Made by a program: the position numbers and the translations under genes
Assembly (NCBI GenBank): GCA_934486755.1
Contig: CAKSQT010000001.1
Location: forward strand, 2,226-66,225
Origin: an uncultured Eubacteriales bacterium
GTDB lineage: Bacteria; Bacillota; Clostridia; Oscillospirales; Acutalibacteraceae
Reading direction: 5' to 3'
DNA length: 64,000 nt
In this document: one piece after another, positions 1-29,248 of the stretch
Layout of the letters: each line of letters opens with the position of its first letter
How positions within the stretch are numbered: position 1 is the first letter of the stretch
The notes under the pieces: model-generated
What the model was told of the DNA's origin: nothing
The model's input: only the letters and a program-made list of their open reading frames with translations
Databases searched by the model: none

Positions 1-808
1 CAAGATCGTCTATATACACAGACCCGCTCATATGGGTGAAGCCTATTCTTGTCTGCGGTGAATCGGAAAGAGCGCATTCCTGATTGAAAAGCTGCATATA
101 TCCGTCTTCACTGACAAGGGTAATTTTCACCGTACCCTTTGAATATCTTGCGGATACCTGCACCCAGGTTTTAAAGGGAAGCGCCTTTGTTGAGTCCGAA
201 TTTACCGCCCTATATTCAAGTTGATTAAATCCGGGGGAATATGACGGGCTTGTGTATCCGTTCTGACCCGACGGTTTGCCGACAGGAACCGCCGTTATTT
301 TGCCTCTTATTGAACGCAACGCTATTCCGCGCCAATTTTCCTTATCCTTATAATCGTAAACAAACGTGGGATAACGGTAATTGTAGTTAGCGTCATCACA
401 TTCAAGCAGCACCTTGAAATTGACAGAATAGAGCGTCGCGTCACTCTGCAAAAAGTTTGATGACAGAAGATATATACCATTATTACCGTTTTTACCTGCC
501 TCGGAGGTGTTCTGTACCGTTATTTTCGCCGCTGTATCGCTGCTGTTAATCGTGTCTTTAAGCGGGTTTTTCACAGCCGACATTTCCGACTTTTTAACGT
601 TAGCATAATCATTGGCGAAGAACATTGACACGTTGCCGTCCTCGAAGTCGGTGCTTGTTTTGACTTCGCCGACAGGGTCAAACGGATCCGAGCCTGTATC
701 GTCCTTATCGTTATTGCTTTCGGCGTAAAGACTTACCGAGGAAACGGCAAGCATTATAACTGCCAACAAAAGTGCAAAAATTGACTTAAATGACTTTTTT
801 GTTTTCAT
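1..808 (-). CDS. secreted beta-sandwich (LamG/concanavalin-like) protein; only the 5' part of the gene is in the window
   Basis: Minus-strand ATG at 806-808 (RC of 'cat') opens a frame that runs off the left edge. The N-terminus MKTKKSFKSIFALLLAVIMLAVSSVSLYAE looks like a signal peptide. The ORF track omits it because no stop falls in the window. The visible portion resembles the first domain of the 821-2554 and 25736-27445 paralogs. Confidence 0.45.
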   Translation of the reverse strand, partial: MKTKKSFKSIFALLLAVIMLAVSSVSLYAESNNDKDDTGSDPFDPVGEVKTSTDFEDGNVSMFFANDYANVKKSEMSAVKNPLKDTINSSDTAAKITVQNTSEAGKNGNNGIYLLSSNFLQSDATLYSVNFKVLLECDDANYNYRYPTFVYDYKDKENWRGIALRSIRGKITAVPVGKPSGQNGYTSPSYSPGFNQLEYRAVNSDSTKALPFKTWVQVSARYSKGTVKITLVSEDGYMQLFNQECALSDSPQTRIGFTHMSGSVYIDDL

Positions 809-820
809 TGCCGTTCCTCC

Positions 821-2554
821 TTATTTAGTCTTTTTAGAGCCGAACTTATTATCGCCGTTTATACCGTTAAAATAATAAGAATATTTTTTATCGTTTGTCC
901 AATCCTTTACAGTATCGGGAATGGGGTCTTCCCAACCGCCGCCGACATAGTTATCGTAATCGCCGTTGATTTCATCGGGAGTCAATTCAACTATAATATT
1001 GTCTATATAACAGTCGGTCTCAAAGGTCTTTACTCCGACTCTGCCGAAGCCGATAATTTCTTCCCAGTTTCCCGCGTCTGAGGTAAGCTCACTCTTCATC
1101 GCCATACCGTCATCAGTAAATTCGATAACCTTTTCGCCGTCAAAATAGACGCATATAATATTATCGAAAACCGAGATAGCAAGGTTGTGCCACTTTCCGT
1201 CGCCTATAATATTATCAATCGGCACAGGGTCGCAAAGACGAGTACCCGTTATGTTCTTTTCCCATTTAACGGGACTGTTGACGTGTTTATAAAGCGACAC
1301 GGTCATTTGGTCGCTATTGCCGATACTCTCATTCTGCACGGTGGCGGCATAATCCGAATAGCCGTACCACTCTACTATTCGGCTTCGGGCGCTGAGTGCA
1401 ATAAAGTTATTGGCATTTTTAGACTTGGGGTCGCATTTTTCGGTGTATTGGAAATCCATACTTACCTTATAGTCCGACCAGCTTTCATCGCCTATAAAAT
1501 CAACCGAATCCTGCATAAGCTGTTTATAAAGGAAGCGGTTACCGTCCTGTACTATTTTGTCGGCATACTTGGGCGCCGCCTCATTGACAGTGCCTTCGCT
1601 TTTGGTATAATCATACTGTTTTTGCCCGCTGGTCCATTTATAGTTTTTATCGGCACCCGTGCCTGCGTCCTTGCCTATGGCGAGCTTTTTATCGTCGGAG
1701 AAGGTTTCGTATAAAACAATGTTTTCATTCCCCGAAAGGTCCAAATCGGGATCGACAGGTTCGGTAGGTTTATCCGAGCCCGATGAACTCGGCTCATCAT
1801 CACTGCCTGTATATGTGCCCTCGCCGTAAAACTTCAAATCGCTGAAATTTGTTTTAACGAACGTTGCCTCATCAACCGAGTGCAGACCGAGGCCCGCATA
1901 TATAGGGCCTGTATAGTCCATTGAAGCATATCCCGCAAGCCGCCAATTTGAATCTCCGCTGTTTTTATATCGGCACTCAACCGAATTTTTCTGAACAACA
2001 ACTTTCAATTGGAACGGGAATGAAACGTTTTTGGCAGAAGTAAACTTCCAGCTTCCTCCCGTCTTAGTACGGTAGACTATCATAAGACCCTCGGCTCTTA
2101 AATGAAGAAAAACACCCGAAGCGTCGTTTGACAGCGAGCTTCTTATCATAATTCCCGATGACGCGTTTATATTAACCGAATCGCCCGCGTTTTCAGGACC
2201 GAAGCTGTTCATAGTAGCCTCTATTGTCAGAGAATCGCTGTCCCTCGGCGCAACATTAAACTTTCTGTAAGCGAATGTTACGTCATCTGTGCTGCCCCAG
2301 TAGCAATATGCGTTTGAACGCATATCGTAACTGCCGCCGCTTTGCTTTATATCGCCTTGCGGAGTATATGCGCCCGCGCCGTTTTCAACTTCGACATTTC
2401 CGTCAATGTTTATCAGCTCCAAATCAGGATTGGTTTCATCAATTTTCTCGGCACGGGTCATAACCATATTGGAAAGCACTATTCCCACGGTCATTAACGC
2501 TACGAGCAGGATAACGGTTATATGTTTCGGTGATATTTTTACATTAGCTTTCAT
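821..2554 (-). CDS. membrane-anchored/secreted two-domain beta-sandwich protein (N-terminal concanavalin-like domain, Ser/Asp-rich linker, C-terminal LamG/DUF1080-like domain); last gene of cassette 1
   Basis: 577-aa ORF with an N-terminal signal anchor (ITVILLVALMTVGIVL). It has an SSSGSDKPTEPVDPD linker and a C-terminal 'DGKWHNLAISVFDNIICVYFDGEKV' LamG-like segment. It is paralogous to 25736-27445 (similar length and domain order). It overlaps the upstream cohesin gene by 11 nt. Confidence 0.5.
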   Translation of the reverse strand: MKANVKISPKHITVILLVALMTVGIVLSNMVMTRAEKIDETNPDLELINIDGNVEVENGAGAYTPQGDIKQSGGSYDMRSNAYCYWGSTDDVTFAYRKFNVAPRDSDSLTIEATMNSFGPENAGDSVNINASSGIMIRSSLSNDASGVFLHLRAEGLMIVYRTKTGGSWKFTSAKNVSFPFQLKVVVQKNSVECRYKNSGDSNWRLAGYASMDYTGPIYAGLGLHSVDEATFVKTNFSDLKFYGEGTYTGSDDEPSSSGSDKPTEPVDPDLDLSGNENIVLYETFSDDKKLAIGKDAGTGADKNYKWTSGQKQYDYTKSEGTVNEAAPKYADKIVQDGNRFLYKQLMQDSVDFIGDESWSDYKVSMDFQYTEKCDPKSKNANNFIALSARSRIVEWYGYSDYAATVQNESIGNSDQMTVSLYKHVNSPVKWEKNITGTRLCDPVPIDNIIGDGKWHNLAISVFDNIICVYFDGEKVIEFTDDGMAMKSELTSDAGNWEEIIGFGRVGVKTFETDCYIDNIIVELTPDEINGDYDNYVGGGWEDPIPDTVKDWTNDKKYSYYFNGINGDNKFGSKKTK

Positions 2555-4265
2555 CTATATCCGCCTCCTTATCAATGGGGTGCTTTAAAGCACGTCTGTA
2601 AAATCCGTAGCAGAAACCGAAGTTAATAAGCAACACGCCGATTACCGCAAGCATGACCCAAATTATATTGCTCATATTGCGTGTAACGAATTTTACCGTA
2701 TATTTTGCCGAATCCTTGATACGTTTTATTATTTCTTTTACGCCGCCCTCGGAATCGCCGCTGTTGTCGTTTTCGTCAATCTCAGCGGCTGTATCGCCGT
2801 CCGAATCTTCGTCCGAGTCGGTATCGTCCTGCGGCAGCTCGGCTATTGCGTCCATAAGCGAGGAAAGCAGTTGTCCCTCATTCTGCAAAAGAGCCTTTAC
2901 GCCGTCGTCAAGCATTTCGTAAGCGTAGTTTGCGATATTAACATCAATCTCATCGTCACGCGTAACCGTTTCGGGCGTTAACGACAAAACATAGGAAAAA
3001 TTATCCTTAAAAGCGTCTGCCGCTTTAATCTCGGCGGCTTTCTCAGGATTTTGAGATATTTTCAGTTCCTCGATCTTCTTTATGAGCTTTTCGAGCAGTT
3101 CCTTTTTATCTGCCAGCATTTCTACGGCATATTTATTTATCTCGTAATCGCCGAGCGCCGAAAGTGCGTTGCGCACACCCGTTTCATCACCTGTTTTGAC
3201 CGTTTCGGGCGTCAGGTCGAAAACCCATTTAAACGGCTGGGATAAATAATCGTTCACCGCTTCTTCGGCGGCGGCGCGCTGTTTCTTTTCAAGCTCCGCC
3301 CTTTCCTGTTCTTCAAGCTCGTCTTTAATCTGCGCTTTCAGGAAAGCAAGAACGCTTTTCAGCGTGTTTTTCTGCGGCATCAGTTTTGCCTGAGCCTGAA
3401 CCGACAGCTTTTCCATTTCGGTTATAGCGGTTTCGAGAGCAACAACGTCCTTAAAACTGCCGTCGGCATTTTTATCTGTCGTCACATTGAGCTTGGTGCG
3501 TGACAAAGCATAACTATGCTCCTGCTTATATTTTTCAACCTCAGCATTTACAGAGTCGTTTCCGCTTTGCTCGCGCAGGCGGTTATATTCTTTAATCGCA
3601 TTTGCAAGCGTGCTGTAATTGGTTACCAGCGGTTTTTCGGAGCCACTCAATGCCGTATACTTATTCCAAGCCGATATAATCCGTTCGTTGCAGGCATCTG
3701 TATAAACGACGGGATTATCTATTGCGTTTATCGCCGCTATTACCGCGTTAACATTATTGACGGCATTACCCGTTATGCTTCCGCCTGTCATAGTCCCTAC
3801 GGCAATATCCTTCATAGCGTTGCCTTCAAAAACATACAGCATTTCAACCGACGGTGTGATTACCGTATCCGAAAACGAGGATTTTGCGGCAAAGGTAAAT
3901 TGAAAAAGTTTACCCGACGTCAAGGTAACTTTATCAAGAGAATCCCAAATAAGCCTTACCTTACCGTTTTTATTGCTTATGGTACAGCCGTCCATATTCT
4001 TAACAAATATCTTTTCGCTGTTGCCCGAAAACGCCACTTTGCTTTCATCATACGCAATTACAAGGGAAATACCGCTGATTTGCACAGCGGCACTTCCTGT
4101 ATATTTTACGGATACCTGAAACGCGTCGTTTGCCTTTACTCCCCCGACGTCCTCAACAGACAGTGACACCGAAGTATCGGCAAACGAGGTTATGGCAACA
4201 ATCGGAAGGATAACTGTAAGCGTAAGAATAACGGCAAATATCTTTTTAAAAATACCAGTTCTCAC
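2544..4265 (-). CDS. type I membrane protein with N-terminal cohesin-like beta-sandwich domain, long helical repeat stalk, acidic tract and C-terminal TM anchor
   Basis: 573 aa with a signal peptide (MRTGIFKKIFAVILTLTVILPIVAITSFA). It is followed by about 140 aa with a cohesin-like pattern (VSLSVEDVGG..FQVSVKYTG..ISLVIAYDESKV..GKLFQFTFAA). Internal helical repeats (..LTPETVKTGDE.. / ..LTPETVTRDDE..) and a DTDSDEDSDGD acidic tract precede a single C-terminal TM (IIWVMLAVIGVLLINFGF) and a short basic tail. There is no LPXTG motif. Paralog of 27442-29154. Confidence 0.5.
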   Translation of the reverse strand: MRTGIFKKIFAVILTLTVILPIVAITSFADTSVSLSVEDVGGVKANDAFQVSVKYTGSAAVQISGISLVIAYDESKVAFSGNSEKIFVKNMDGCTISNKNGKVRLIWDSLDKVTLTSGKLFQFTFAAKSSFSDTVITPSVEMLYVFEGNAMKDIAVGTMTGGSITGNAVNNVNAVIAAINAIDNPVVYTDACNERIISAWNKYTALSGSEKPLVTNYSTLANAIKEYNRLREQSGNDSVNAEVEKYKQEHSYALSRTKLNVTTDKNADGSFKDVVALETAITEMEKLSVQAQAKLMPQKNTLKSVLAFLKAQIKDELEEQERAELEKKQRAAAEEAVNDYLSQPFKWVFDLTPETVKTGDETGVRNALSALGDYEINKYAVEMLADKKELLEKLIKKIEELKISQNPEKAAEIKAADAFKDNFSYVLSLTPETVTRDDEIDVNIANYAYEMLDDGVKALLQNEGQLLSSLMDAIAELPQDDTDSDEDSDGDTAAEIDENDNSGDSEGGVKEIIKRIKDSAKYTVKFVTRNMSNIIWVMLAVIGVLLINFGFCYGFYRRALKHPIDKEADIDES

Positions 4266-4298
4266 CTTGTACTCCTTTCTTAGTTGACAAAGGCTTGA

Positions 4299-5936
4299 TT
4301 ATTTTGCTTTGTACTCCTGCATTTGTTTGGATACCGTTGATTTTACATCGTCAAGCTTGGCATCCTTCATCTTCTTTATCATCTGATCGTAGGTCGCGGT
4401 ATATTTGCTTCCGTTAAGCCCTGAAAGGAGCTGATCGTTATACTCTTTAATTACGCTTGCAACATTTGAAACGTCTGTAAGCATTGACGAGAGGTCTGCT
4501 CTGAAACGGTAATAAGGCGTTTTGTGAAGCGTTGGTCTTACGTTCTTTTCAAATTCGAGCGCCCACTCGGACTGACCGTCAAGAACAACGGGCGTATGGT
4601 ATAACAGATATGCGTTTGTAACCGTCCAGAAGCACTTGCCGTATTTGCAGGAAGAACTCGGCTGCACCGTATAGTCAACGCCCTGCGCGCAGTCGCCTGT
4701 AAGAGTGTAGTGATAGGTGTTATACTCCTTAGCGTACTCGCTGTTCTTTTCAAATCCGTAACAGAGGAGGTTCGCAAGGTCGTTGCCTTCCGTACCCTTA
4801 GGCGAGCGCATAAGGTCAAGCAGTTTTATAGCTTCTTTGGGATACTTTGCGGTTATCGGAATAACCTGGTATGTCGCTTCGCTTCCCAAAATAGAAACCC
4901 CGTTAAACTGCTGCTCGGTCGTGTCGAGCAAAAGTCCGTAAGTACCTATTTCACCGTTGTTAAGTATGTATTTGACGCCTCTTGCCTCGCCTGTTTCGGG
5001 ATTGTCGGTTCCGTACCACATTCCCGAACCGTCTGCCCATATAACCGATGCCCTTGTTCCGCCGCCGTTTGAGGTAAGAACATCCTCAGGAACATAGCCC
5101 GCATTGTACCATTTGCCCGCATATTCAAGGTAAAGTTTATATGCGTCTGTTTCCATAAAGTTTACCAGCTGCGCGTTATCGTCAAATGCGTCGTAGCAAA
5201 GCGACGCGCCGTTCATTGATGTGGCGCCTACAAAGTCATATCCTCTTGTCGCAAGGATTTTACCTATTGTAATTACATCAATACCGTTACCTATCGTATC
5301 GGTATCATAGGCGTCGGCAGCCCAAACTTTTTCAAGGAACTTTGTAATCTCATCATACACCGCGCGGGTCGTTTTCGTAGAACTGTGCGCCGCATTTAAC
5401 AGTGCGTCAACGTCCATATACTGATAAAGTTCGGCGGGTATATCAATTTGTGCCGACTGCTGGAATATAGGCTGCTGAATAGGCAACATATAGAGCTTGT
5501 CGTTATATGTACCGCTGTAATAATCCTCGGCATAATCCTTCATTTCCTGATAAATGTTGGGAGTATCCTTTTCATTTATAAGGTCATCAAGCTCGGAATA
5601 AGCGCCCTTTGTAATTTCACTCTCAACATCGTAGAGGTAACCCGACCACGCAATGTCAACCTGATCTCCCGCGTTCATCCAGAGCGACCAGTTTTCATTT
5701 GTCTGGTCAATAAACTCAACCTGAACGCCAGGCATAAGTTCGTTCAGTTTTTTATTAAATTCCTTGTGTACTATTTCGTCATCTTTACAGCCGAGCGCGC
5801 CTGAAAAGCCCCATTTTAATACGACCTTGCCGCCTTTGCCGCCGCAGCCCGTAAAGAGTGCCGCAATCATACTTACCGAAAGTATTGCCGCAATTATTCT
5901 GCCAAACTGTTTTTTCATAAAAATGCTCCTTTTCAA
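4299..5936 (-). CDS. ABC transporter substrate-binding lipoprotein, CUT1/LplA-like (extracellular solute-binding protein family 1)
   Basis: 545 aa with a lipobox (ALFTGCGG). The size and composition are typical of LplA/YesO-type polysaccharide-binding SBPs. It lies directly downstream of two CUT1 permeases. Paralog of 29249-30814. Confidence 0.8.
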   Translation of the reverse strand: MKRSIFMKKQFGRIIAAILSVSMIAALFTGCGGKGGKVVLKWGFSGALGCKDDEIVHKEFNKKLNELMPGVQVEFIDQTNENWSLWMNAGDQVDIAWSGYLYDVESEITKGAYSELDDLINEKDTPNIYQEMKDYAEDYYSGTYNDKLYMLPIQQPIFQQSAQIDIPAELYQYMDVDALLNAAHSSTKTTRAVYDEITKFLEKVWAADAYDTDTIGNGIDVITIGKILATRGYDFVGATSMNGASLCYDAFDDNAQLVNFMETDAYKLYLEYAGKWYNAGYVPEDVLTSNGGGTRASVIWADGSGMWYGTDNPETGEARGVKYILNNGEIGTYGLLLDTTEQQFNGVSILGSEATYQVIPITAKYPKEAIKLLDLMRSPKGTEGNDLANLLCYGFEKNSEYAKEYNTYHYTLTGDCAQGVDYTVQPSSSCKYGKCFWTVTNAYLLYHTPVVLDGQSEWALEFEKNVRPTLHKTPYYRFRADLSSMLTDVSNVASVIKEYNDQLLSGLNGSKYTATYDQMIKKMKDAKLDDVKSTVSKQMQEYKAK

Positions 5937-6809
5937 TTATTCTTTTACCGAGCCGACGGCAATTCCCTTTGCAAAATACTTTTGCATATACGGGAAAAGC
6001 AGCAAAATCGGTATAGTGGCTATGATACACATAGCGTATTTCATAGTTTCAAGCGGTATTGCCGAGGTATCCCTTACCCCTGATTCTTTAAGCGCTTTAA
6101 CAAGAACGTCGGCGCTGTTAAGTATTTTTTGCATTAAAAACTGTATTGTCCAATACTCTTTTTTCGTTATATAGATTAGTGAGGTCTGCCAGTTATTCCA
6201 ACCTCCGACAACACCTGTGAAAAAGTTCATTCCGATTATCGGCTTTGACATCGGCATCACTATGCTCCACAGGGTTCTGAACTGACTTGCCCCGTCTATC
6301 TCCGCCGACTCAATAAGCGATTTCGGCACACCCTTAAAAAACGTTTTGTAAACTATAACGCCCCACGCACCGACAGCAGGCAACAAATACACCATCGGAT
6401 TGTCTTTCATATGATAAAGCTGTGTGTAAACCATATACGTCGGCATTAAACCGCCGCTTACAAACATTGTACCCAGCAGAATGACATTTACAGGCTTTTT
6501 TAAAATAAAGTCGTCCCTTGTAAGGGGATAGGCAAAGGCACAGTTGACAACTATATTTATCACAGTTGCGAGAAGTGCAACAATTATCGTAAATATAATT
6601 GCTCTGCCCATAACCGCTATGTTTTCAAACAGCATTTTATATGCCGCAACCGACCAGATCTTCGGTATAAATGAAAAGCCGTATGTGGAAAACTCCGCCT
6701 CGCCAGTGAACGAAATTATAAGTATCATCAGCACAGGAACTAAAAATATAAGGGTCATTATCGCGAAAAAAATATGTAAAACTATCGGATATACTTTTCC
6801 GTCCTTCAT
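5937..6809 (-). CDS. sugar ABC transporter permease, LplC/YtcP-like (MalG-type)
   Basis: 290 aa with multiple TM segments and the EAA-like loop 'ESAEIDGASQFRTLWSIVMPMSKP'. Adjacent to the SBP gene with a 0-nt gap. Paralog of 30857-31783. Confidence 0.8.
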   Translation of the reverse strand: MKDGKVYPIVLHIFFAIMTLIFLVPVLMILIISFTGEAEFSTYGFSFIPKIWSVAAYKMLFENIAVMGRAIIFTIIVALLATVINIVVNCAFAYPLTRDDFILKKPVNVILLGTMFVSGGLMPTYMVYTQLYHMKDNPMVYLLPAVGAWGVIVYKTFFKGVPKSLIESAEIDGASQFRTLWSIVMPMSKPIIGMNFFTGVVGGWNNWQTSLIYITKKEYWTIQFLMQKILNSADVLVKALKESGVRDTSAIPLETMKYAMCIIATIPILLLFPYMQKYFAKGIAVGSVKE

Positions 6810-6821
6810 AATAACCCTCCC

Positions 6822-7763
6822 CTAATAAACCGCGTTTTCAGGATTTGTCCGCTTGATTATTGTATTAGTAACAATAAGAAGGACCAAACCTACTGCCGAT
6901 TGAAAAATTCCGACCGCACTTGTAACGCCGACGGTGTATTTTCCCGCCAATCCGTGATAAAGATATGTTGCCAAGGTTTCGGTCGTTGAATACAAAGCGC
7001 CCGAATCAAGCGGCACCTGATAGAATATGTCCATTCCGCCTGCCAGCACCTGACCCATACGGAGTATCAGCACCATACTTGCCATCGGCATAAGCTCGGG
7101 GAAAGAAATGTAACGCATCTGCTTAAATTTACCCGCCCCGTCAAGCGCCGCGGCTTCATACAACGAAGTGTCTATTGAAAGCAACGCCGCGTAGTAATAC
7201 AGACTTGCCATACCAACATCTTTCCATATCTCAAAAAACGTCAGTATAAACGGCCAATATTTCGCCGATTCACGCGAGCTGTAAAAATTAATCGTGTCAA
7301 ACCCCATATTTTTAAGGGCAAGCACTATCACACCGTTTGTAGGACTAAGTAACACATATCCGATATAGGCTACTACGACCCACGAAAGAAAGTTCGGTAT
7401 CAGCATAGCCGTTTGATACAGCTTGTTTGCGTGTTTTGATTTAACATCATAAAGCAACAACGCGACCAACATACCAAGCGCAAGATTTACTATCAACATC
7501 CACGCAATGTTATAGCCTACTGTGTTTCTTATGACCCTGAGCATATCGCCAGAATCAAAAAAGTTCTTGAAATTTTTAAAACCTACCCACGGGCTTCCGA
7601 ATATTCCGTCGCGGTAGTTATACTCCTTAAACGCAAGCACCATACCGAAAACGGGGACGTAATGCAACAAAAGCATTGACAAAAGCCCAGGAAGTATGAA
7701 AAGCAGATAAACGGCATTGTTTTTATATTTAAGTTTTCTGGATCTACTGTTTTTTAAAGACAT
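6822..7763 (-). CDS. sugar ABC transporter permease, LplB-like (MalF-type)
   Basis: 313 aa with an N-terminal 'KYKNNAVYLLFILPGLL' motif typical of LplB-type permeases. It has the EAA loop 'EAAALDGAGKFKQMRYISFPEL'. Paralog of 31790-32749. Confidence 0.8.
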   Translation of the reverse strand: MSLKNSRSRKLKYKNNAVYLLFILPGLLSMLLLHYVPVFGMVLAFKEYNYRDGIFGSPWVGFKNFKNFFDSGDMLRVIRNTVGYNIAWMLIVNLALGMLVALLLYDVKSKHANKLYQTAMLIPNFLSWVVVAYIGYVLLSPTNGVIVLALKNMGFDTINFYSSRESAKYWPFILTFFEIWKDVGMASLYYYAALLSIDTSLYEAAALDGAGKFKQMRYISFPELMPMASMVLILRMGQVLAGGMDIFYQVPLDSGALYSTTETLATYLYHGLAGKYTVGVTSAVGIFQSAVGLVLLIVTNTIIKRTNPENAVY

Positions 7764-7778
7764 TTTATATCCCCGTTT

Positions 7779-9401
7779 CTAATTCGCGTCTTCAACCGTA
7801 TCGTCAAGTACGTCTGCGCGTGTACGTTTTAAAAGCAGATGCCACTTAACAATAACCAAAACGGTAAATGCGATAAGTACAACTATAATCACAGCCAATA
7901 CTATAAAAAGTATCTTTTCAGCAAGGCTTACCTTGGCGCCCTTATTTTCAACGACCGTTGACACGCCGCCCGACTCTGTATTTTCGGTGTTCTCAGCACC
8001 GTCCGTATCTGTATCGGTCTGACTGTCCGCTCCGCTTTCAGTCTGAGCGTCGCCCGCCTGAGCCTGCGAATTATCCGAACCGCTTGCCGTCCCCGCACCG
8101 CTTTCCGCAAGCGGAACATACGAATCGGGAGAAGTTATCGGATGAACGTCTTTAAGCTGAGGATACGCCCCGTCGCTTACCTTCCACGCCGATATGCTGC
8201 TAAACGCTGCGTTAATTTCAGCCATAGAGCCTGCCGCAAAACCTATTTCCAAGCCGCCTGGGGCGTCGCTTATCCAGTTGTTCTTTGTAAGCGTCTTATT
8301 AGTCTGTGATTTTGTTCTTCCCTCAATAACTGCGGTTGTGTAGCAGTTTTCACACGCTTCGGTGTTTTTCTTAATACCTGAGCCGTAAACATCGGTGGCG
8401 TAGAAACACCCCGAGGAGCTGGTCATTACTTTGCCGCCCGCCCAACAGTTTTTAACATACGAATCCCCTGTCATGGGTCCGCAGAACGCGCCCGCGCTGG
8501 TATAACCGCCTGTGAAGCTGCCCTGATAAAAACAATTTTCAATGTTGACCTTGCCGTTATATTTGCCCCAATATGTTTCATTGCCGCCGCAAAAACCGCC
8601 TGAATTCCAAACGCCTGTCGTGGTGACATTTGCATACGAATAACTGTTTTTGATACTTGCGGTTTTTCCTTTTTCGGCAGAAAGTGTTCCGACAAGACCG
8701 CCGACATTGTTTGAGGCGCTTGTTACCGTTCCCGAAGAACCGCAGCCTGTTATTTTTGTGTTGAGCGCCGTTCCGACAAGTATTCCCGTTGACTGTTCAA
8801 GCGACTGTCCCGGATTTGTTGACCAGTCGCTGTTCATTTGGGAGTTGCCTTCAACGGTACTCTTAACAGTTGCGTTAAGTATTACAATATTTTTGAGCGT
8901 TGCTCCCTTTGTCTGACCGAAAAATCCTGCTTCCCAGCCCATAGAACCGTCGCTTTTGAAACCGCTGTACTTTTCAGCAAGGGTAGAGCCTGTCGGTCTA
9001 TGGTCTATGCTGAGATTTTTAATTATGTATTTAGGAGTGCCGTCAGACGCCTTATCACAGGTGAAAGTGCCCGTAAACGGAGCGCTGAATTTTCCTATTG
9101 GGACAAAATTCGCAACCGACGACATATCAATATTATTCGCCAGTTTATAGTTTGCAGAAAGATTGTTTCTTATTTCGTCTACCTGCTGTGCATTTGTTAC
9201 AAGGTACGGACTTTTAACCGTGCCTTTGCCCTTTCCGCTGAACCCTGCCGCTTTCACCGAAAACTGTGAGATTCCGAAGACACAAACGCTCAAACACGTA
9301 ATCATCAAAATGCTCGTTACCTTAAATAGCGATTTCATTTTCATTTTTTTGATTGCCCCTTTCAAAAATTGCAAAAAAATTCCATTTTTCAAGATTGACA
9401 T
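7779..9401 (-). CDS. GLUG-motif beta-helix surface protein with signal peptide and C-terminal TM anchor; first gene of cassette 1 (start more likely at 9344)
   Basis: The N-terminal mature region 'KSPYLVTNAQQVDEIRNNLSANYKLANNIDMS...PIGKFSAPFTGTFTCDKASDG..IIKNLSID' matches the GLUG/IgA-protease-like N-terminal consensus. Gly/Ser-rich beta-helix-like repeats follow. The C-terminal helix ILFIVLAVIIVVLIAFTVLVIV is hydrophobic. An internal ATG at 9344 (MKMKSLF..) follows GAAAGGGG and gives a cleaner signal peptide. Paralog of 32709-34526. Confidence 0.5.
   Translation of the reverse strand: MSILKNGIFLQFLKGAIKKMKMKSLFKVTSILMITCLSVCVFGISQFSVKAAGFSGKGKGTVKSPYLVTNAQQVDEIRNNLSANYKLANNIDMSSVANFVPIGKFSAPFTGTFTCDKASDGTPKYIIKNLSIDHRPTGSTLAEKYSGFKSDGSMGWEAGFFGQTKGATLKNIVILNATVKSTVEGNSQMNSDWSTNPGQSLEQSTGILVGTALNTKITGCGSSGTVTSASNNVGGLVGTLSAEKGKTASIKNSYSYANVTTTGVWNSGGFCGGNETYWGKYNGKVNIENCFYQGSFTGGYTSAGAFCGPMTGDSYVKNCWAGGKVMTSSSGCFYATDVYGSGIKKNTEACENCYTTAVIEGRTKSQTNKTLTKNNWISDAPGGLEIGFAAGSMAEINAAFSSISAWKVSDGAYPQLKDVHPITSPDSYVPLAESGAGTASGSDNSQAQAGDAQTESGADSQTDTDTDGAENTENTESGGVSTVVENKGAKVSLAEKILFIVLAVIIVVLIAFTVLVIVKWHLLLKRTRADVLDDTVEDAN
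9364..9381. promoter_or_regulatory. single ATTGCAAAA box (aaaaattgcaaaaaaatt) just upstream of the RBS of the GLUG/Lpl operon
   Basis: Same TTGCAA-palindrome box as the paired sites at 9508-9545 and 11129-11166. It lies 20-35 nt upstream of the likely start at 9344. Confidence 0.35.
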
Positions 9402-9507
9402 TTAGAGGGATAATTTGTCATTTTGCACCTTAGATTGCACTCTGACAGAACAAAATTTCACCAATTTGTCACCTACTACACATATAATACAGCATTATAT
9501 ACCGAAA

Positions 9508-9545
9508 CACAATTGCAAAATAAGAAGTAAAACTTGCAAAAAGCG
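9508..9545. promoter_or_regulatory. paired ATTGCAAAA boxes (direct repeat, 21-bp spacing) - candidate operator of the adjacent AraC-family regulator
   Basis: cacaATTGCAAAAtaagaagtaaaacTTGCAAAAAgcg shares a nearly identical 38-bp arrangement with 11129-11166. It sits in the promoter region of cassette 1. Confidence 0.45.
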
Positions 9546-9567
9546 ATATCTTTCGCGTTTGTGCAAA

Positions 9568-9600
9568 TATAATAAAAAAGACCGGCTTAAAAGTCGGTCT
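9568..9600 (-). terminator. rho-independent terminator downstream of the GH gene
   Basis: Hairpin agaccggc-ttaaaa-gtcggtct (9579-9600). On the minus-strand RNA it is followed by CUUUUUUAU. Confidence 0.6.
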
Positions 9601-9613
9601 AAAATTAATTATA

Positions 9614-10987
9614 TTATACTTTAATTGTTATTTCGCTGTTTCCGTCTTTATTAAAATCAAGGATATGCTCCGATTTCCTTCCGTTTATTTCAATTGTGAT
9701 TTTATACTTGCCGAAAAATCCTTTGAAATCAAGCTCGCTGCCCTTTGCAAAATCCGAGGTGTGCCACTCATTATGTATAAGGTCGTACACTGCTTTGTAC
9801 GCAGGCTTTAATGTAAAATCGTTTCGCATAAATCCGCCGTAGTAAAAATTTTCGCCTTGGGTCATATCAAGTATCGGTCCCAAATACCCCTCAACTAAAT
9901 TCCAATAAACTATTGCTTCCATGTTGGGATGTGAAAACCAGATTTTATAGAGGTTTTTGATTATCTCTGCCTGTACTTCCTCATCATCCGCCTCATTTGA
10001 ATAAGACGGTATTGTTATTTCAGTTATTTGCATAGGTAAATTGAAATCGCTGTAAGTATCAAGAACCTCATAAATAAATTTTGGGTTGTAGAACTTCTCC
10101 GCCATTTTCATTTCATCCTCACGCTTATAGAAGAAATGATACTGCATTCCTATGGTGTCAATCGGTGTTCCATGTTCAAGCTCCTGTTTTATCTGCATAT
10201 AATAACTGCTTCTTGTATGAAGATAATGCTCCCATACAGTCTCGTGATTATCATTGATAATAAGCTCGTTGTTCGGGAAATACTTTCTTGCGGTCTTGAA
10301 CGACCAATTAACAAAATCGGGTTCAAAGAAGAATTTTGTCTGACCGAACGGATGCGGGTACAACACAAGGGTTTCGTTAGTAACTTCCCATTCTTTTATA
10401 TCTTTTGCAAAATATTCGGAACATTCCCTCATTCTGTCTTCAAGCGCTTGCTTTACCCCGTCAACGGTTTTTAATTCCTTTACCCATTGCGCGTCCCATC
10501 CGTCATAATTAAGACAGTGCGCTTTGGCTTTGATATCATTCTCCTTGCAGAATTTAATACACTCGCTTATGGGAGGACGCCTGTGGATATGCGGTTCATC
10601 CTTAAAATAACGTTTTTTCGCTTTTTCAGGCTCATTATCGCCCCAATAGAATGGTAAAACGGCGAGGTTAAATAAGTCCGAAAAATATTTCCTGTATAGT
10701 TCGTTTTTCTCCGCATAATCAGGCAAAATAGGAAGGTCGCCGTATTTTTGGGGGTCAATATTTGCCCAGTCGCCGAGCGTATCGAGCATAAATACGTTTG
10801 CGCCGAAATCGAAGGAGTGTTTTTTAAGTTCAACCGATATTTCGGCATCAACAGGATTACCGACATCATCGGTTACTTTGATTTTGAAATTCCCCTTGCG
10901 GTACTTTTCTATTCCCTCGTTTACACGTGCGTCCATATAATCCTTGTATTTTTCAAAATATTTTAATACTGCTTTGCGATTGCTCAT
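9614..10987 (-). CDS. cytoplasmic glycoside hydrolase, clan GH-A TIM-barrel (GH10-like motifs)
   Basis: 457 aa with no signal peptide. 'EWEVTNETL' resembles the GH-A acid/base NE(P) motif and 'MQITEITIPS' resembles the nucleophile TEL/ITE motif. The exact family is not certain from sequence alone. Confidence 0.5.
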   Translation of the reverse strand: MSNRKAVLKYFEKYKDYMDARVNEGIEKYRKGNFKIKVTDDVGNPVDAEISVELKKHSFDFGANVFMLDTLGDWANIDPQKYGDLPILPDYAEKNELYRKYFSDLFNLAVLPFYWGDNEPEKAKKRYFKDEPHIHRRPPISECIKFCKENDIKAKAHCLNYDGWDAQWVKELKTVDGVKQALEDRMRECSEYFAKDIKEWEVTNETLVLYPHPFGQTKFFFEPDFVNWSFKTARKYFPNNELIINDNHETVWEHYLHTRSSYYMQIKQELEHGTPIDTIGMQYHFFYKREDEMKMAEKFYNPKFIYEVLDTYSDFNLPMQITEITIPSYSNEADDEEVQAEIIKNLYKIWFSHPNMEAIVYWNLVEGYLGPILDMTQGENFYYGGFMRNDFTLKPAYKAVYDLIHNEWHTSDFAKGSELDFKGFFGKYKITIEINGRKSEHILDFNKDGNSEITIKV

Positions 10988-11128: not shown

Positions 11129-11166
11129 CACAATTGCAAAATGAGAAATAACTATTGCAAAAAGCG
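11129..11166. promoter_or_regulatory. paired ATTGCAAAA boxes (21-bp spacing) in the divergent araC-like/GH promoter region
   Basis: cacaATTGCAAAAtgagaaataactaTTGCAAAAAgcg lies 45-80 nt upstream of the probable TTG start (11212) of the AraC-family gene. Confidence 0.45.
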
Positions 11167-11976
11167 TCTTATTGTGTTAGTATACATTCGGAATTTATTC
11201 AAGGAGGGTTTGTTTTGCAGCAATATCTCGATCTTACAACGGTTCCAACCTATATGTTTGCGGGTTTCAGAAAGTTTTCGCCCTACGAGCGCCATATAAA
11301 CCGAGTCTCGTCTGAAAACGTGCTGTTGCTGATACTTAACGGCACATTGACATTTAAAGAGGACGGAAAAGAGGTTACATTAAATAAAGGCGAATATTAC
11401 ATACAAAAATCGGGCGGTTTGCAGGAGGGACACAAAGCAAGTCTTGAACCCTACTACTTTTTCATACATTTTACAGGCACAGTAAACGCAAATCCCGACG
11501 GCATACCGATACGCGGCACATTTTCAACAGGTGAATTTATGCCGCTGATAAACAGTTTAAATCAGTCGATTATTGACGCAAAGGGCAATAATTTCAAAAA
11601 GACATTTTTATTTATGCAAATTATTAATAATTTAATTCCGGTTAAGCACAGCACCTCTGACAAATTAGTTGACCTTATGAAAGAAATTATGGAAAAAAAT
11701 TATTCGCAAGACTTTCTTATAGAAAATCTTGCGAACCAACTTAATTATTCTAAGGATTACATAATTAAAAAATTCAAGAAAACGGCAGGTATAACCCCGC
11801 ACCAATACTTAACGCGGCTGAGAATATCAAAGGCTAAAAACCTATTGATCTCCTCCGAAAAAACACTTGAAGAAATTTGCTCGGAGTGCGGATTTACCGA
11901 CATTTCGACCTTTCACCGCAATTTTGCAAAGGAATCGGGAACCACACCCCACAAATTCAGGTCAAAAAATCTGTAA
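11155..11976 (+). CDS. AraC/XylS-family transcriptional regulator (probable start TTG at 11212 after AAGGAGGG)
   Basis: C-terminal dual HTH region 'DYIIKKFKKTAGITPHQYLTRLRISKAKNLL..TLEEICSECGFTDISTFHRNFAKESGTTPHKFR' is classical AraC-type. The N-terminal domain is consistent with a cupin-like effector domain. Confidence 0.85.
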   Translation: MQKASYCVSIHSEFIQGGFVLQQYLDLTTVPTYMFAGFRKFSPYERHINRVSSENVLLLILNGTLTFKEDGKEVTLNKGEYYIQKSGGLQEGHKASLEPYYFFIHFTGTVNANPDGIPIRGTFSTGEFMPLINSLNQSIIDAKGNNFKKTFLFMQIINNLIPVKHSTSDKLVDLMKEIMEKNYSQDFLIENLANQLNYSKDYIIKKFKKTAGITPHQYLTRLRISKAKNLLISSEKTLEEICSECGFTDISTFHRNFAKESGTTPHKFRSKNL

Positions 11977-13013: not shown

Positions 13014-16000
13014 TTACTCGGTTATTCCAAGACAGGTGTAAACATCATTTTTGATGGTTGTAATATCTGTCTTTGTTGAGTCAAGCGCGTTCTCGGCGGT
13101 GTAAGCCGTTATCTGTCCTTGGGTTACATAGTAAGCCGCGGTCTTGCGGAGCGCCTTGTTGCGTGACATTGTGATTTCGTTCGATTCTACCGTATAACCG
13201 CCGAGCTTAACATAGAGCTTGGTGTGTACGGAAATCCTTGACGCGTCAAGGGTCGGGTCAACATTTGTTCCCGATATAACCACGCCGAAGGTTGAGGCGT
13301 TCTCAGCGGCGTTTACCGTCTTTATATCGGCGGCAGTAGGAACCTTTTTCGCCCAAACCTGTGCGCCTATCTCGATTATCGGGAGGAGCGCGTCAATCTT
13401 GTTGGCGGCTATATTTATATCCTCGTTGTTTATTAAAACCGATTTGCCGAGATTGGCGGCATAATTTTCGGTTGTGATGGCTTTATACGCGATAGAATCT
13501 TTAACCGCAACCGAGCCCGAGAACGAGAGCGCGCCCTTGGCGGTATCGCCGAGATAGATATTTGCGCCTTCGTCTGCAAATACGGTGTTCTTTGCAAGCT
13601 GTCCTTCGGTATAATACTTAAAGTCGGCTATTTTGAGTGTTCCGTTGTTTGCATAGAAGTACGGACGGAAATCGCTCATATCGCCTACTGAGTAGGTGCG
13701 TTTTACCGAGGAGAATACTACGCGGTCAGAATTATCGTTGCTGTAAATGTAAATATCCATTGTAACGGCAACCTTACCTGCAACTGAATAGTCAAACTTC
13801 ATATCAAGTGTCGTCCAATAGGTGTTATTGTACGCGTTTGATTTAAGCGCTTTGTTCATAGTGCCGTTTTCGTTGTATGCCTGACCCGATCCGATAAAGA
13901 ATTCATTGCCCTGTACGGCAAAAGCGCCGTTGTTAAGAGTCGCTGTTTTATGTGCAACCCCTTCAAGGAACAAACCGAAGCCGCCCTTTTCGGCAACAGT
14001 CTTATCGCCTGCGAACATTATATACTGATTGGTACCAATACCGCTGTAAGTAACGGACATATAGGCGGGTTTTGTGCCCTTAGGCCATACAGCCTCTGTA
14101 AGAGTTGCTTCATCGCCCGAATTTAGTAAAAGTGTATTTTTCTTGGAAAGGCTGGTCAGATTTTTGTCGAACGACGGGGTTACAACGCCGCCTATCCAAT
14201 TTTTCTCGGACTTTGAAGCGTCGCTGAAATCGTCAGACACAAAGGTTGCAGACGTTGCAGCCGAAAGAACGTTCTTAATTTCGGCAGATACACGCTCCGC
14301 CGCCTTAGTATCGAGCTTTTCAAGTTCCGCCTTAGCGGTTACAAAATCAGCGCTGTCGGCAGTTATAGCGGAATATTTAAGGTTAAATTCATCAGCAGCC
14401 GCCTGTGCGGTTTGAACACCCATTGCTTTTATGTTTATTGTGCTGTTTGACGCCAGCGTGAACGCAACATTCGCGGGTTCGTCATCGGTCAGTTTATAGG
14501 TCTTGTATACGGTTGACTTATAAGTATCGTCGGTTTTATCATAAACACTGCCTTCAACCACACCCGCCGAATAAAGAACGTTTTTACCGCTGAATGTAGC
14601 AGTTGTTTTAACCGTCAGTTTTTTAGAAGCCGAATACTGTGACCAGTCATAATCAAACTCAAACTTGACCCAACCGTTTTGAGGTGTTTTGGTTGCGGAA
14701 ATATTCCACAGACCCATACGGTTATCGGCACCTCTGCCTTTCAAATTGTTTCCGTATTCGCACGCAAAGGTTTTGGCGTTGCCTTCATATTCAGCAACCC
14801 AGCAGAGATACCCAGACTCATAAGCGCCGGTATCACCCTTTGCGGTCAGGCAGGTAGAATTACCTCTTACGGGATAAAATTTAACAGTTGTAGCACCTGC
14901 GGGATACTGCCAGGTTACTTCCGAATGAGTAATGGGTGTACCGTCGGTTGAAGCAAACTCGGCGTTGCCCGTATATGTAACAAACGTATCAGCGTCGGTA
15001 ACAGTAGCCGCGGTACTTGCAAAATAGTTATCACGTATCCACTTGCTTTGCGAGAAATCAACCGAACGCGAGGTTTTGATATTTGCCAAAACGTCAGCGG
15101 ATTTTGCATCTATCAATGCTTTAAGGGCGGTTATTTCGCTGTCAGATTGTACTAACGGGGTGAACGCGTTATAGGCGTCTACCGCCTTTGCGAAGGTAAT
15201 TAAATCGTCCTCTGTCATAGAGTCAACAGACTTGTTAAGTACCGCCGCATAAGCGTTTTTATACGCCGCAACCTTTTCGGGAACCGAAAGGGACTCTATT
15301 TTCGCGTCTACCGCGTTAAGGAAAGCCAATACGTCGGCGCCGTTATCGGCGTTAAGAACCGCCTTAACATCATTACTAAGGGTTGCATAGGCTTCGCGCG
15401 CGGCAACCGAATTATCGGTATCGTCAGCGGTTACATCTTCGCTGTTTTTGGTGAACAACTCGTTTAAATCAAGATATTTGAGCGCTTCATCAGCATAGGA
15501 AGTAACGTTAAAGTTGTCAACATAAATCTTACCCGTAACCGCTACACCACTATTACCAGCTGTGGCAAACATAGGGGTCAGGGTTTCAACATCGAGATTA
15601 TAATCGCTAAGTTTATATGATATAGTAGCGTTAGCCTCGGCATCGCCTGTGGCGGTATACGTTGAGCCGCCGACACTAACCTCTGTACCAACTGTATATA
15701 ATGCCGTTCCCTTTGTAGTTACGGTTATTGTAACCGCGGTATCGGTATATTTAAAGTTGAAATCATAATGAACATTTTTGCTCGGGTCAATTTCAGCATA
15801 GTTTGAGTCTGTACTGTTAAGATACCCAAATCCGCAGTATTTTTCGTTAGTGTTTCCGACAGTTCCGTTTACAAGCGATATCTTTTTAACAAGCAACGCC
15901 CCGTCCTGATAGTTCATCTGGGTGCCGATAGCGTTACCGTTTTTGTCTTTAAGGAAGAAATATCCGAAGTTATACCCTGCTAAGGCTCCACCTGTCATAT

Positions 16001-16325
16001 CAAAAGCGGCGGTTATGGGTTTGTTCCCTGTCGGCCACTGTTTAACCGTTGCCGTAGCCAATTTACCCCTCAGATCATCGGACAAACAGAGAGCATAATC
16101 ATCTGCATTTTCAGAAGCGGGGCTTTGAATCATTGTATGACTGCCAACGTCGTTATAATCAAAAACGGCGTTTGCTTCATCAATACCGTCAAGCGTTGTA
16201 CTCTTGAATACATTAAATTTCGCGACGGAAACGCCCGCGTTATCGGCGAAAACAACCGACGACACGCAGGTTAAGACCATTGCGAGTGCCAGAAATAGTG
16301 AAAGTAGTTTTTTCTTTGTACGCAT
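13014..16325 (-). CDS. large secreted multidomain protein (signal peptide; about three copies of a novel 'W-x-x-G-N/T-K-P' beta-rich domain; helical linker regions); no dockerin, no obvious anchor
   Basis: 1103 aa with N-terminal MRTKKKLLSLFLALAMVLTCVSSVVFA and a strong RBS AGGAGG. N-terminal module 'KQWPTGNKP..GYFFLKDKNGNAIG..TLTPMFATAGNSG' is homologous to the N-terminal module of the 1825-aa dockerin protein (KWWCGGNKP..GYFFLTDKNGNAVG..TLVPMFRSTGS). A further copy sits near aa 740 (WPKGTKP...). Confidence 0.7.
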   Translation of the reverse strand: MRTKKKLLSLFLALAMVLTCVSSVVFADNAGVSVAKFNVFKSTTLDGIDEANAVFDYNDVGSHTMIQSPASENADDYALCLSDDLRGKLATATVKQWPTGNKPITAAFDMTGGALAGYNFGYFFLKDKNGNAIGTQMNYQDGALLVKKISLVNGTVGNTNEKYCGFGYLNSTDSNYAEIDPSKNVHYDFNFKYTDTAVTITVTTKGTALYTVGTEVSVGGSTYTATGDAEANATISYKLSDYNLDVETLTPMFATAGNSGVAVTGKIYVDNFNVTSYADEALKYLDLNELFTKNSEDVTADDTDNSVAAREAYATLSNDVKAVLNADNGADVLAFLNAVDAKIESLSVPEKVAAYKNAYAAVLNKSVDSMTEDDLITFAKAVDAYNAFTPLVQSDSEITALKALIDAKSADVLANIKTSRSVDFSQSKWIRDNYFASTAATVTDADTFVTYTGNAEFASTDGTPITHSEVTWQYPAGATTVKFYPVRGNSTCLTAKGDTGAYESGYLCWVAEYEGNAKTFACEYGNNLKGRGADNRMGLWNISATKTPQNGWVKFEFDYDWSQYSASKKLTVKTTATFSGKNVLYSAGVVEGSVYDKTDDTYKSTVYKTYKLTDDEPANVAFTLASNSTINIKAMGVQTAQAAADEFNLKYSAITADSADFVTAKAELEKLDTKAAERVSAEIKNVLSAATSATFVSDDFSDASKSEKNWIGGVVTPSFDKNLTSLSKKNTLLLNSGDEATLTEAVWPKGTKPAYMSVTYSGIGTNQYIMFAGDKTVAEKGGFGLFLEGVAHKTATLNNGAFAVQGNEFFIGSGQAYNENGTMNKALKSNAYNNTYWTTLDMKFDYSVAGKVAVTMDIYIYSNDNSDRVVFSSVKRTYSVGDMSDFRPYFYANNGTLKIADFKYYTEGQLAKNTVFADEGANIYLGDTAKGALSFSGSVAVKDSIAYKAITTENYAANLGKSVLINNEDINIAANKIDALLPIIEIGAQVWAKKVPTAADIKTVNAAENASTFGVVISGTNVDPTLDASRISVHTKLYVKLGGYTVESNEITMSRNKALRKTAAYYVTQGQITAYTAENALDSTKTDITTIKNDVYTCLGITE

Positions 16326-18675: not shown

Positions 18676-18680
18676 TTAAT

Positions 18681-29154: not shown

Positions 29155-29209
29155 ACCCTTTTCCTTTCTTCGGACCGACAGAGGATTTCCGTCGGCCTAA
29201 ATTTGCCTA

Positions 29210-29234
29210 CCGATGGCGGCTTTGCCGCCATCGG
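29210..29234. other. perfect 10-bp GC-rich stem-loop (CCGATGGCGG-cttt g-CCGCCATCGG) in the 94-nt gap downstream of the SBP gene
   Basis: Intra-operon hairpin without a U-tract. This is typical of SBP-gene 3' stabilisers/partial terminators in ABC-transporter operons. Confidence 0.4.
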
Positions 29235-29248
29235 TAACTGTGTTTATA

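Follow-up and report, generated by a model that had tools for sequence, protein, structure and literature searches.

Pairs of cohesin and dockerin modules are mainly understood as the glue of cellulosomes and amylosomes. For the many cohesins and dockerins of non-cellulolytic gut Firmicutes, we know of no agreed role. The Gram-positive polysaccharide-utilisation loci (PULs) of Roseburia and Eubacterium rectale, and the lplABC system of Bacillus subtilis with its yesMN-type regulators, combine an LplA-type solute-binding protein (SBP) containing DUF3502, two permeases, AraC or histidine kinase/response regulator (HK/RR)-AraC regulators and a co-encoded extracellular glycan-active protein, and have no ATPase gene at the locus. 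In all these systems, the extracellular enzyme is itself wall-anchored or free, and no cohesin or dockerin is known to be involved. We analysed a 64,000-nucleotide (nt) stretch of contig CAKSQT010000001.1 from an uncultured Acutalibacteraceae bacterium of the human gut (hereafter the window, to which all positions refer). It contains two paralogous seven-gene cassettes that share the above features with these Gram-positive systems and, unlike them, also encode a membrane-anchored single-cohesin protein and a secreted dockerin protein.

In monovalent anchoring scaffoldins (OlpA and OlpC of Clostridium thermocellum, ScaE of Ruminococcus flavefaciens, Sca2 of R. bromii), as we propose for the cassettes, a single surface cohesin holds dockerin-bearing glycan-degrading proteins. 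These scaffoldins are attached to the wall by SLH domains or by sortase (PMC4611034, PMC4081043), whereas the cassette protein has a C-terminal membrane helix and a stalk. The R. bromii surface anchor Sca2 uses sortase (PMC4611034, which also summarises the E. rectale system). Monovalent anchoring scaffoldins are encoded in sca clusters or alone; in contrast, the cassette cohesin is encoded in an ATP-binding cassette (ABC) importer operon with one putatively dedicated dockerin enzyme. Its fold is nearest to type I cohesins, and the cassettes contain no multi-cohesin primary scaffoldin. The lone cohesin of R. albus was considered and rejected, as it belongs to an adaptor of the ScaF type, which joins a cohesin to a dockerin and differs in architecture (PMC4081043).

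Single-cohesin proteins with a C-terminal transmembrane (TM) segment were noted in a 2024 survey in Lachnoclostridium sp. MSJ-17 (WP_216523161.1, WP_216522914.1), H. luporum and C. cibarium; the survey left their partners unclear (PMC11557425). A 2026 preprint described TM-anchored scaffoldins in R. difficilis, Ruminococcus sp. HUN007 and other rumen Ruminococcus (bioRxiv 10.64898/2026.02.05.704116). Compared by description and not by sequence, these proteins resemble the cassette protein in having one cohesin and a C-terminal TM segment, and they were read as membrane-attached anchoring scaffoldins. However, neither report names a partner or ABC transporters, and operons, a word looked for in the preprint only, are not named there; neither describes a seven-gene cassette of this kind, the repeats of the helical stalk or a dockerin enzyme encoded in cis. 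ABC transporter genes do occur among the scaffoldin genes of cluster E of Pseudobacteroides cellulosolvens, where the authors suggest uptake of degradation products (PMC5590126). The scaffoldins of that cluster, in contrast, use SLH or CSBM modules as anchors and form part of a very large cellulosome, and neither a conserved cassette nor a dedicated cis dockerin enzyme is described for it.

The likeness to a Sus-like PUL of Bacteroidota is one of functional analogy only: in both, one regulated locus provides an enzyme at the surface, accessory or binding proteins alongside it there, and a dedicated importer. The cassettes lack SusC and SusD (Pfam results for the cassette genes), are Gram-positive and use ABC import, and their enzyme would be tethered by cohesin-dockerin contact, not by lipidation. 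Full-text literature searches returned neither this cassette nor any account of a cohesin gene placed within an LplABC-type operon. A preliminary description of this DNA had presented the arrangement as new; this appears to hold for the cohesin in an LplABC-type operon, but the claim was somewhat overstated, because single-cohesin proteins with a C-terminal TM segment had already been noted and ABC genes lie in the P. cellulosolvens scaffoldin cluster. A TM-anchored single cohesin is thus already known as a prediction; what appears new is the seven-gene cassette with its dedicated dockerin enzyme, importer and helical stalk.

Cassette 1 consists of seven genes on the minus strand, which encode, in order, a GLUG-like protein, two permeases, an SBP, a cohesin protein, a LamG-like protein and a dockerin protein. 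Six closely packed open reading frames (ORFs) run from 9401 to 821, and the seventh starts at 808. The intergenic gaps are 15, 12, 0, 33, -11 and 12 nt, and no convincing internal terminator was seen across these gaps of -11 to 33 nt; the genes are probably co-transcribed. Gene order and spacing (gaps of 0-33 nt or overlap) agreed exactly with the preliminary description, as did the position of the cohesin gene, which has the SBP gene on one side and the gene for a carbohydrate-binding-like (ConA/LamG-like) protein on the other. The last ORF, which had been taken for another secreted beta-sandwich protein, is in fact the first 269 codons of a gene for a 1501-amino acid (aa) protein with a beta-helix and Dockerin_1; the full gene is present in contigs of the same species.

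Cassette 2 (34526-25736, minus strand) contains the same six genes in the same order, paralogous gene for gene, and is followed by the seventh gene at 20243-25720. Identity to the cassette 1 counterpart is 23% for the cohesin protein, 28% for the LamG-like protein, 30% for the SBP, 36% for the GLUG-like protein and 41-47% for the permeases. Spacing in cassette 2 is looser (-41, 6, 42, 94, -4 and 15 nt). The recurrence and the paralogy of every member had been described for a five-gene module; both were borne out, but the module has seven genes, and the ORF at 20243-25720, previously listed as a separate item, is really the last gene of cassette 2.

Gene 5 of cassette 1 (2544-4265, minus strand) encodes a 573-aa membrane-anchored single-cohesin protein, Coh1; its paralogue Coh2 (570 aa) is encoded at 27442-29154 on the minus strand. 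Pfam matches were judged by gathering or curated cut-offs (Cohesin PF00963, 24.1 bits; Dockerin_1 PF00404, 22.9; 3keto-disac_hyd, 26.8; Glug, 20.5). PF00963 matched Coh1 with 39.5 bits (aa 34-165) and Coh2 with 40.1 bits (aa 44-169). An AlphaFold2 (AF2) model of Coh1, built from an 11-sequence alignment (mean predicted local distance difference test [pLDDT] 79.9), placed a beta-sandwich at aa 33-166 with pLDDT ~85-93. When the model was compared with the Protein Data Bank (PDB) by Foldseek, the top 46 matches were all cohesins, with E values down to 1.7e-8; the best were type I cohesins solved with their dockerins (6kgf, 2vn6, 5nrm and 1g1k; TM-score [target] 0.70-0.75). A family profile searched against PDB sequences gave cohesins in 18 of 20 matches, including all of the best 15. 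By curated hidden Markov model (HMM) score and predicted fold, the N-terminal module (aa 31-168; 3762-4175, minus strand) is a cohesin. Since all 46 top matches are cohesins, the model does not point to an unrelated Ig-like fold, the outcome that would have spoken against the preliminary description.

The cohesin module of Coh1 is followed by a stalk (aa 169-478; 2832-3761, minus strand) that is all-helical in the AF2 model (aa 169-476, pLDDT ~90) and is made up of four repeats of a 65-80-aa helical unit and one long connecting helix. No Pfam model matched the stalk. The repeat motif is F..x.L.LT...VT..D...V..A...Y..L....K.LL......L..L...I..L. An acidic, disordered linker (aa 481-532; AF2 pLDDT <50) directly precedes the C-terminal TM helix, which was placed by hydropathy at aa ~533-556 (2598-2669, minus strand; AF2 helix 533-561). 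The tail past this helix is short, ~12-17 residues (~17 aa in Coh1), with no recognisable domain. Coh2 has a signal peptide and a TM segment at 520-557 by hydropathy, and aligns with Coh1 over aa 1-488 of Coh1's 573. From the N-terminus on, the predicted protein starts with a signal peptide and the cohesin, continues into the helical stalk and the disordered linker, and ends with a single TM helix and its short tail. The type I membrane topology proposed earlier (signal peptide and C-terminal TM segment) agrees with both hydropathy and AF2. Neither Coh1 nor Coh2 carries a classical cellulosome anchor (no SLH domain by Pfam, no LPXTG motif); the C-terminal TM helix is present instead. Each protein contains one cohesin, and the Pfam scan of window ORFs of >=200 aa turned up neither a further cohesin nor a multi-cohesin primary scaffoldin.

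The stalk unit is found beyond the cohesin proteins. The cassette dockerin proteins have one to four copies of it in their N-terminal halves, and it also occurs in clade-B GLUG-like proteins. Within the window, it was seen in a 1103-aa secreted protein (13014-16325; aa 290-408) and in the product of 20243-25720 (aa 251-371 and 627-748). Giant metagenomic proteins contain up to 29 separate matching stretches.

The seventh gene of each cassette encodes a very large secreted protein with a C-terminal dockerin. In cassette 1, this gene (Doc1; 1-808, minus strand) has a ribosome-binding site and an ATG at 808, 12 nt past the LamG-like gene, and the part after codon 269 lies beyond the window edge. 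Three contigs with a 100% identical cohesin protein (L001-L003) contain Doc1 in full: 1501 aa with a beta-helix and Dockerin_1. Its dockerin (aa 1364-1421) matches solved dockerins, and the Dockerin_1 match, above threshold, is on record in L001. In cassette 2, the complete gene (Doc2; 20243-25720, minus strand) encodes an 1825-aa secreted protein composed of helical units, Ig-like domains, a right-handed beta-helix (Pect-lyase_RHGA_epim) and a C-terminal type I dockerin (aa 1767-1825; nt 20246-20422), which scored 47 bits against Dockerin_1. Doc1 and Doc2 are paralogous (29% identity over ~900 residues), with the same beta-helix match. In each cassette, the last gene thus encodes a beta-helix protein of 1,500-1,800 residues. 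The core is predicted to be a pectin-lyase-fold, putatively polysaccharide-active module without a close characterised relative; it belongs to no assigned family and is not a dockerin-borne cellulase or hemicellulase of the usual kind.

All 12 cassette dockerins examined have two calcium-loop repeats of the form DxNxDGxxxxxD, 34 residues apart in 11 of them and 40 in locus L025. In most cassette dockerins of both deep clades, positions 10-11 are L-K in both repeats. In the non-cassette dockerin of the window (55441-58536), these positions are I-R and Q-D and the spacing is 32 residues. The cassette dockerins fit a dedicated dockerin subfamily, and their shared recognition positions suggest possible cross-reaction between the cohesin-dockerin pairs of different cassettes.

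To assess conservation, we examined 16 distinct, highly diverged readable cassettes from other metagenomes and metagenome-assembled genomes (MAGs). A dockerin gene lies downstream of the cohesin and LamG-like genes in 15 of the 16. The seven-gene order is kept where the cohesin proteins are 18-42% identical to Coh1, and even at 18-27% identity (L009, L011, L012/L013, L014/L015, L020 and L027, the last with one extra gene before the dockerin gene). L028 can be read only from the cohesin gene onwards, since its contig stops just before that gene; its three final genes follow the same order. To lessen ascertainment bias, a metagenome scan was also anchored on the LamG-like protein: a cohesin-family gene was immediately upstream in 9/9 loci with readable upstream sequence, and a dockerin-type gene was present in all but one locus with readable downstream sequence. 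For each of the seven components, the members in eight cassettes are homologous to one another, and these cassettes fall into the same two clades by SBP identity as by cohesin-protein identity. Because a dockerin-bearing beta-helix protein is encoded in both cassettes and in 15 of 16 diverged ones, the idea of a docking platform over the importer is stronger than the preliminary description had it, and every part of that proposal open to computational checks agreed with the results.

The cohesin-stalk-TM family is broad. Word-indexed protein searches gave just 13 and 31 relatives, and thereby the false look of a tiny family; this was corrected by an exhaustive profile search of 1.84 billion representatives (50%-identity clusters), which returned 431 proteins at E <=1e-30. 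Of the best 150 representatives, 83 have every part of the architecture (a signal peptide, then a cohesin-like module at the N-terminus, stalk units and a TM segment at the C-terminus, in 500-700 aa), so that the family comprises at least 83 protein clusters at 50% identity. An alignment of 67 members resolved two deep clades, that of Coh1 and that of Coh2, and 18 subgroups at ~28% identity. Pfam Cohesin, the sole recurrent family, was matched by 42 of the 67 (E <=1e-3). One candidate in a conjugative-element-like context (P0011, locus L010, 551 aa) was rejected as most likely an assembly chimera, with a DUF3846 N-terminus joined to 420 C-terminal residues of a cohesin-stalk protein of the P0009 type. 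A scan of genome contigs with Coh1 alone gave one locus, from the same species, in a Hadza gut MAG (94% identity).

We consider it probable (about 0.6) that the cassettes are self-contained polysaccharide-utilisation units, in which the cohesin, on its stalk, keeps the dockerin enzyme encoded in cis on the cell surface, beside its own LplABC-type importer. A sugar-responsive regulator would switch on the operon, an AraC protein for cassette 1 and a YesM/YesN-like kinase with an AraC-type response regulator for cassette 2. The operon would supply the importer (two permeases and a lipoprotein SBP), with the ATPase coming from elsewhere in the genome. The type I membrane protein would be held by its C-terminal helix in the membrane, and its ~50-residue linker and ~310-residue stalk would carry the single cohesin through the wall. 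The last gene would provide the very large secreted protein with its pectin-lyase-fold beta-helix and C-terminal type I dockerin. Binding of this dockerin by the cohesin would hold the putative depolymerase directly above its own importer, and the released oligosaccharides would be captured by the SBP. The GLUG-like membrane protein and the secreted ConA/LamG-like protein would be accessory surface parts, probably glycan-binding or auxiliary catalytic.

Several points weigh against this reading. The proposed cohesin-dockerin pairing is drawn from conserved synteny and domain identity. Locus L021 has a 793-aa non-dockerin protein after the LamG-like gene; its order is permease, permease, SBP, GLUG-like, cohesin, LamG-like, the GLUG-like gene having moved between the SBP and cohesin genes, and its cohesin-family protein has no Pfam Cohesin match. 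Locus L025 consists of GLUG-like, cohesin, LamG-like and dockerin genes, without transporter genes between the first two. The perfect hairpin between the SBP and cohesin genes of cassette 2 could uncouple their expression. No CAZy family could be assigned to the beta-helix: the structure closest to it is an epimerase, and adhesins such as PfbA are among the other structural matches. The cytoplasmic GH10 and GH125 proteins encoded nearby hint at conflicting substrates. In addition, the cohesin protein is the fastest-evolving component (22-27% identity between clades), and 25 of the 67 aligned members miss E 1e-3 against Pfam Cohesin. One-to-one specificity within each cassette's pair is doubtful, because the cohesin protein diverges fastest yet the dockerin recognition positions are alike across cassettes.

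The similarity of recognition positions is also what a general surface anchor would show. The stalked cohesin might serve many dockerin proteins, or those of other cassettes, with its operon position reflecting co-regulation only. The L-K pair at positions 10-11 in most repeats is common to the cassette dockerins of both deep clades, the window has three dockerin genes against two cohesins, including that of an LRR_5 dockerin protein outside the cassettes, and several dockerins are known to share one anchoring scaffoldin with a single cohesin, as in R. bromii Sca2 (PMC4611034). However, the non-cassette dockerin differs in both recognition residues and repeat spacing, and the keeping of the dockerin gene in all but one of the 16 cassettes through very deep divergence is hard to explain unless the cis enzyme is a main client. 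We regard a general anchor as unlikely. The rapid evolution of the cohesin protein and the 25 members that miss Pfam Cohesin at E 1e-3 could also mean that the N-terminal module is a cohesin fold that no longer binds dockerins; cohesin-like folds do occur in non-dockerin contexts, such as the CLIPPER adhesin domain (rank 26 of the fold search). The protein would then be a stalked glycan-binding or structural transporter protein, comparable to SusE/F, and the enzyme would be held by another scaffoldin. This is improbable: both window proteins score above the curated Pfam cut-off, the best structural matches are type I cohesins solved with dockerins, and no other cohesin was found in any cassette or elsewhere among the Pfam-scanned ORFs of the window.

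A single-pass protein with an extracellular binding module, encoded beside sugar-responsive regulators, could in principle be a transmembrane sensor of glycan or enzyme occupancy that signals to the regulator in the manner of RsgI. Such a role is very improbable because the cytoplasmic tail is only ~12-17 residues long, without a recognisable domain; moreover, the TM helix lies at the C-terminus, in an orientation opposite to that of RsgI, and dedicated AraC or HK/RR regulators are already there. Enzyme docking at the importer remains our preferred reading.

The genome itself suggests partners for these modules, in that a single cohesin, a single dockerin enzyme and a single importer have stayed linked across very deep divergence; a long-standing question on the role of cohesins and dockerins becomes directly testable with a few recombinant modules. 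If the pairing is true, the cassettes would represent a Gram-positive route to the Sus principle of surface degradation and import at once, and would give a rule for reading the glycan-utilisation loci of uncultured Clostridia. Surface-display engineering would also gain compact cohesin-dockerin pairs that match, together with a helical stalk that spans the wall. The beta-helix proteins are in no characterised family and are therefore candidates for new glycan specificities. More tentatively, with the odds slightly short of even, the cassettes may belong to a large undescribed class of 'one cohesin, one dockerin' loci in uncultured gut and rumen Clostridia, in which a stalked cohesin recruits the depolymerase of the same operon into a fixed enzyme-importer assembly and a genome has several cassettes, each for its own glycan. 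Such a class would be a third organisation of surface glycan capture beside Sus-like PULs and cellulosomes. It would account in part for the abundance of 'orphan' dockerins among non-cellulolytic Firmicutes; here two cassettes lie within 34 kb.

Both cassettes encode a CUT1/LplABC-like importer, comprising two BPD_transp_1 permeases and a lipoprotein SBP with DUF3502. In cassette 1, gene 2 (6822-7763, minus strand) encodes an LplB/UgpA-like permease with NCBIfam UgpA and GlcT matches below cut-offs, and gene 3 (5937-6809, minus strand) encodes an LplC/MalG-like permease with GlcU, MalG and UgpE matches below cut-offs. Gene 4 (4299-5936, minus strand) encodes the LplA-type SBP, SBP1 (DUF3502, 43.5 bits; lipobox LFTGCGG). 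The sole PDB matches of SBP1 were weak and were to extracellular solute-binding proteins (5suo, 5swa and 5mlt). The counterparts in cassette 2, all on the minus strand, are permeases at 31790-32749 and 30857-31783 and an SBP, SBP2, at 29249-30814 (DUF3502, 64.6 bits; lipobox CFAGCGS). No ABC ATPase signature (LSGGQ, ABC Walker A) was found in the 64-kb window; the preliminary description had likewise reported no ATPase gene for the operon. In CUT1 systems, the ATPase is often a shared MsmK/MsmX-type enzyme whose gene lies elsewhere. Enzyme, transporter and regulator are co-located, in keeping with an operational definition of a Gram-positive PUL in which the enzyme is assigned from the beta-helix fold only.

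The accessory proteins gave less clear family matches. Gene 1 of cassette 1 (7779-9401, minus strand) encodes X1, a GLUG-like protein of type I membrane topology, in which a repeat domain and an acidic low-complexity linker lie between the signal peptide and a C-terminal TM segment; hydropathy placed TM segments at aa 23-50 and 488-526. The true start of X1 is probably 21 codons downstream of the ORF start, and the gene called in relatives encodes 519 aa. Its paralogue X2 (32709-34526, minus strand; 36% identical to X1) also has a C-terminal TM segment. Gene 6 (821-2554, minus strand) encodes Lam1, a secreted two-domain ConA/LamG-like protein whose membrane signals are limited to the N-terminal one; Lam2 (25736-27445, minus strand) is a secreted protein of the same type, 28% identical to Lam1 over its full length, with a weak 3keto-disac_hyd match. 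Among the domain names first given to these cassettes, Cohesin was supported by Pfam in both paralogues, GLUG exceeded its cut-off in X2 only (21.1 bits, against 18.3 for X1), and the DUF1080-like 3keto-disac_hyd match of Lam1 fell below its cut-off (24.2 bits). The X1 homologue in L025 scored 40.7 bits against Glug, and 3keto-disac_hyd matches are recorded for the Lam1 homologues of L027 (strong) and L014 (weak). Sequence searches of the PDB with the GLUG-like and LamG-like proteins gave nothing useful.

A C-terminal motif of the LamG-like protein, GGDYDNYVGGxW in Lam1, is conserved in a seven-sequence alignment. In the general form D..(G/N)G(D/N)(Y/F)DN..GG.(W/F)..(P/E)(I/M/V), found in both Lam1 (aa 527-545) and Lam2, no other stretch of the protein is as well conserved from cassette to cassette. 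It may be a contact site for another cassette component.

Promoter and terminator scans were near background for cassette 1, and in cassette 2 terminator-like sites were ~2x the shuffled expectation; only hairpins read directly from the sequence were counted as evidence. The 94-nt spacer between the SBP2 and Coh2 genes (29155-29248, minus strand; the cassette 1 equivalent is 33 nt) contains a perfect 13-bp GC-rich hairpin at 29208-29236 that no T-run follows; another hairpin lies ahead of the ribosome-binding site. These hairpins may be an intra-operon mRNA stabiliser or an attenuator that sets the ratio of transporter to surface protein. Ahead of cassette 1, the minus strand has a hairpin with a T-run after it at ~9570-9600. 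The probable promoter and leader of cassette 1 would be at 9402-9570 (minus strand), between this terminator-like hairpin of the GH10 gene and the first cassette gene.

The GH10 gene (9614-10987, minus strand) encodes the only GH10-family protein nearby, which has neither a signal peptide nor a dockerin (Glyco_hydro_10, 99.6 bits; no N-terminal hydrophobic segment). This gene separates the regulator from cassette 1, has a terminator-like hairpin of its own and forms a separate transcription unit. Its absence at the matching position in the 61%-identical relative L004 gives it the look of a recent insertion. Next to it, and divergent from cassette 1, is the gene of an AraC-family regulator (11155-11976, plus strand; HTH_18 and HTH_AraC in Pfam); an AraC gene has the same divergent position upstream of the clade-A cassettes L001, L004, L008, L009 and L011. 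Cassette 2 adjoins a YesN/YesM-type two-component system (16993-20126, minus strand), identified by Pfam, with an AraC-HTH response regulator at 18681-20126 and a histidine kinase at 16993-18675. A pair of this type also adjoins the clade-B cassette L012 and the cluster-9 cassette L027; in L021, only the response-regulator gene was seen.

Directly 3' of the cassette-1 dockerin gene, relatives carry a GH125 gene (exo-alpha-1,6-mannosidase family; no signal peptide) at 18027-19295 of L001 and 16463-17731 of L004. This neighbour and the PDB matches of SBP1 are weak hints of substrate. SGNH/GDSL-type genes adjoin other cassettes.

The window is chromosomal, with recA, cysS and the genes of ribosomal protein L1 and secE present. 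A heavy-metal P-type ATPase gene (HMA and E1-E2_ATPase; 34680-36947) is divergent from cassette 2 and appears unrelated to it. The third dockerin gene of the window, outside the cassettes (55441-58536), encodes a 1031-aa protein with LRR_5 repeats; it adjoins an FG-GAP repeat protein gene (53762-55066 listed with it) and an OmpR-type two-component system.

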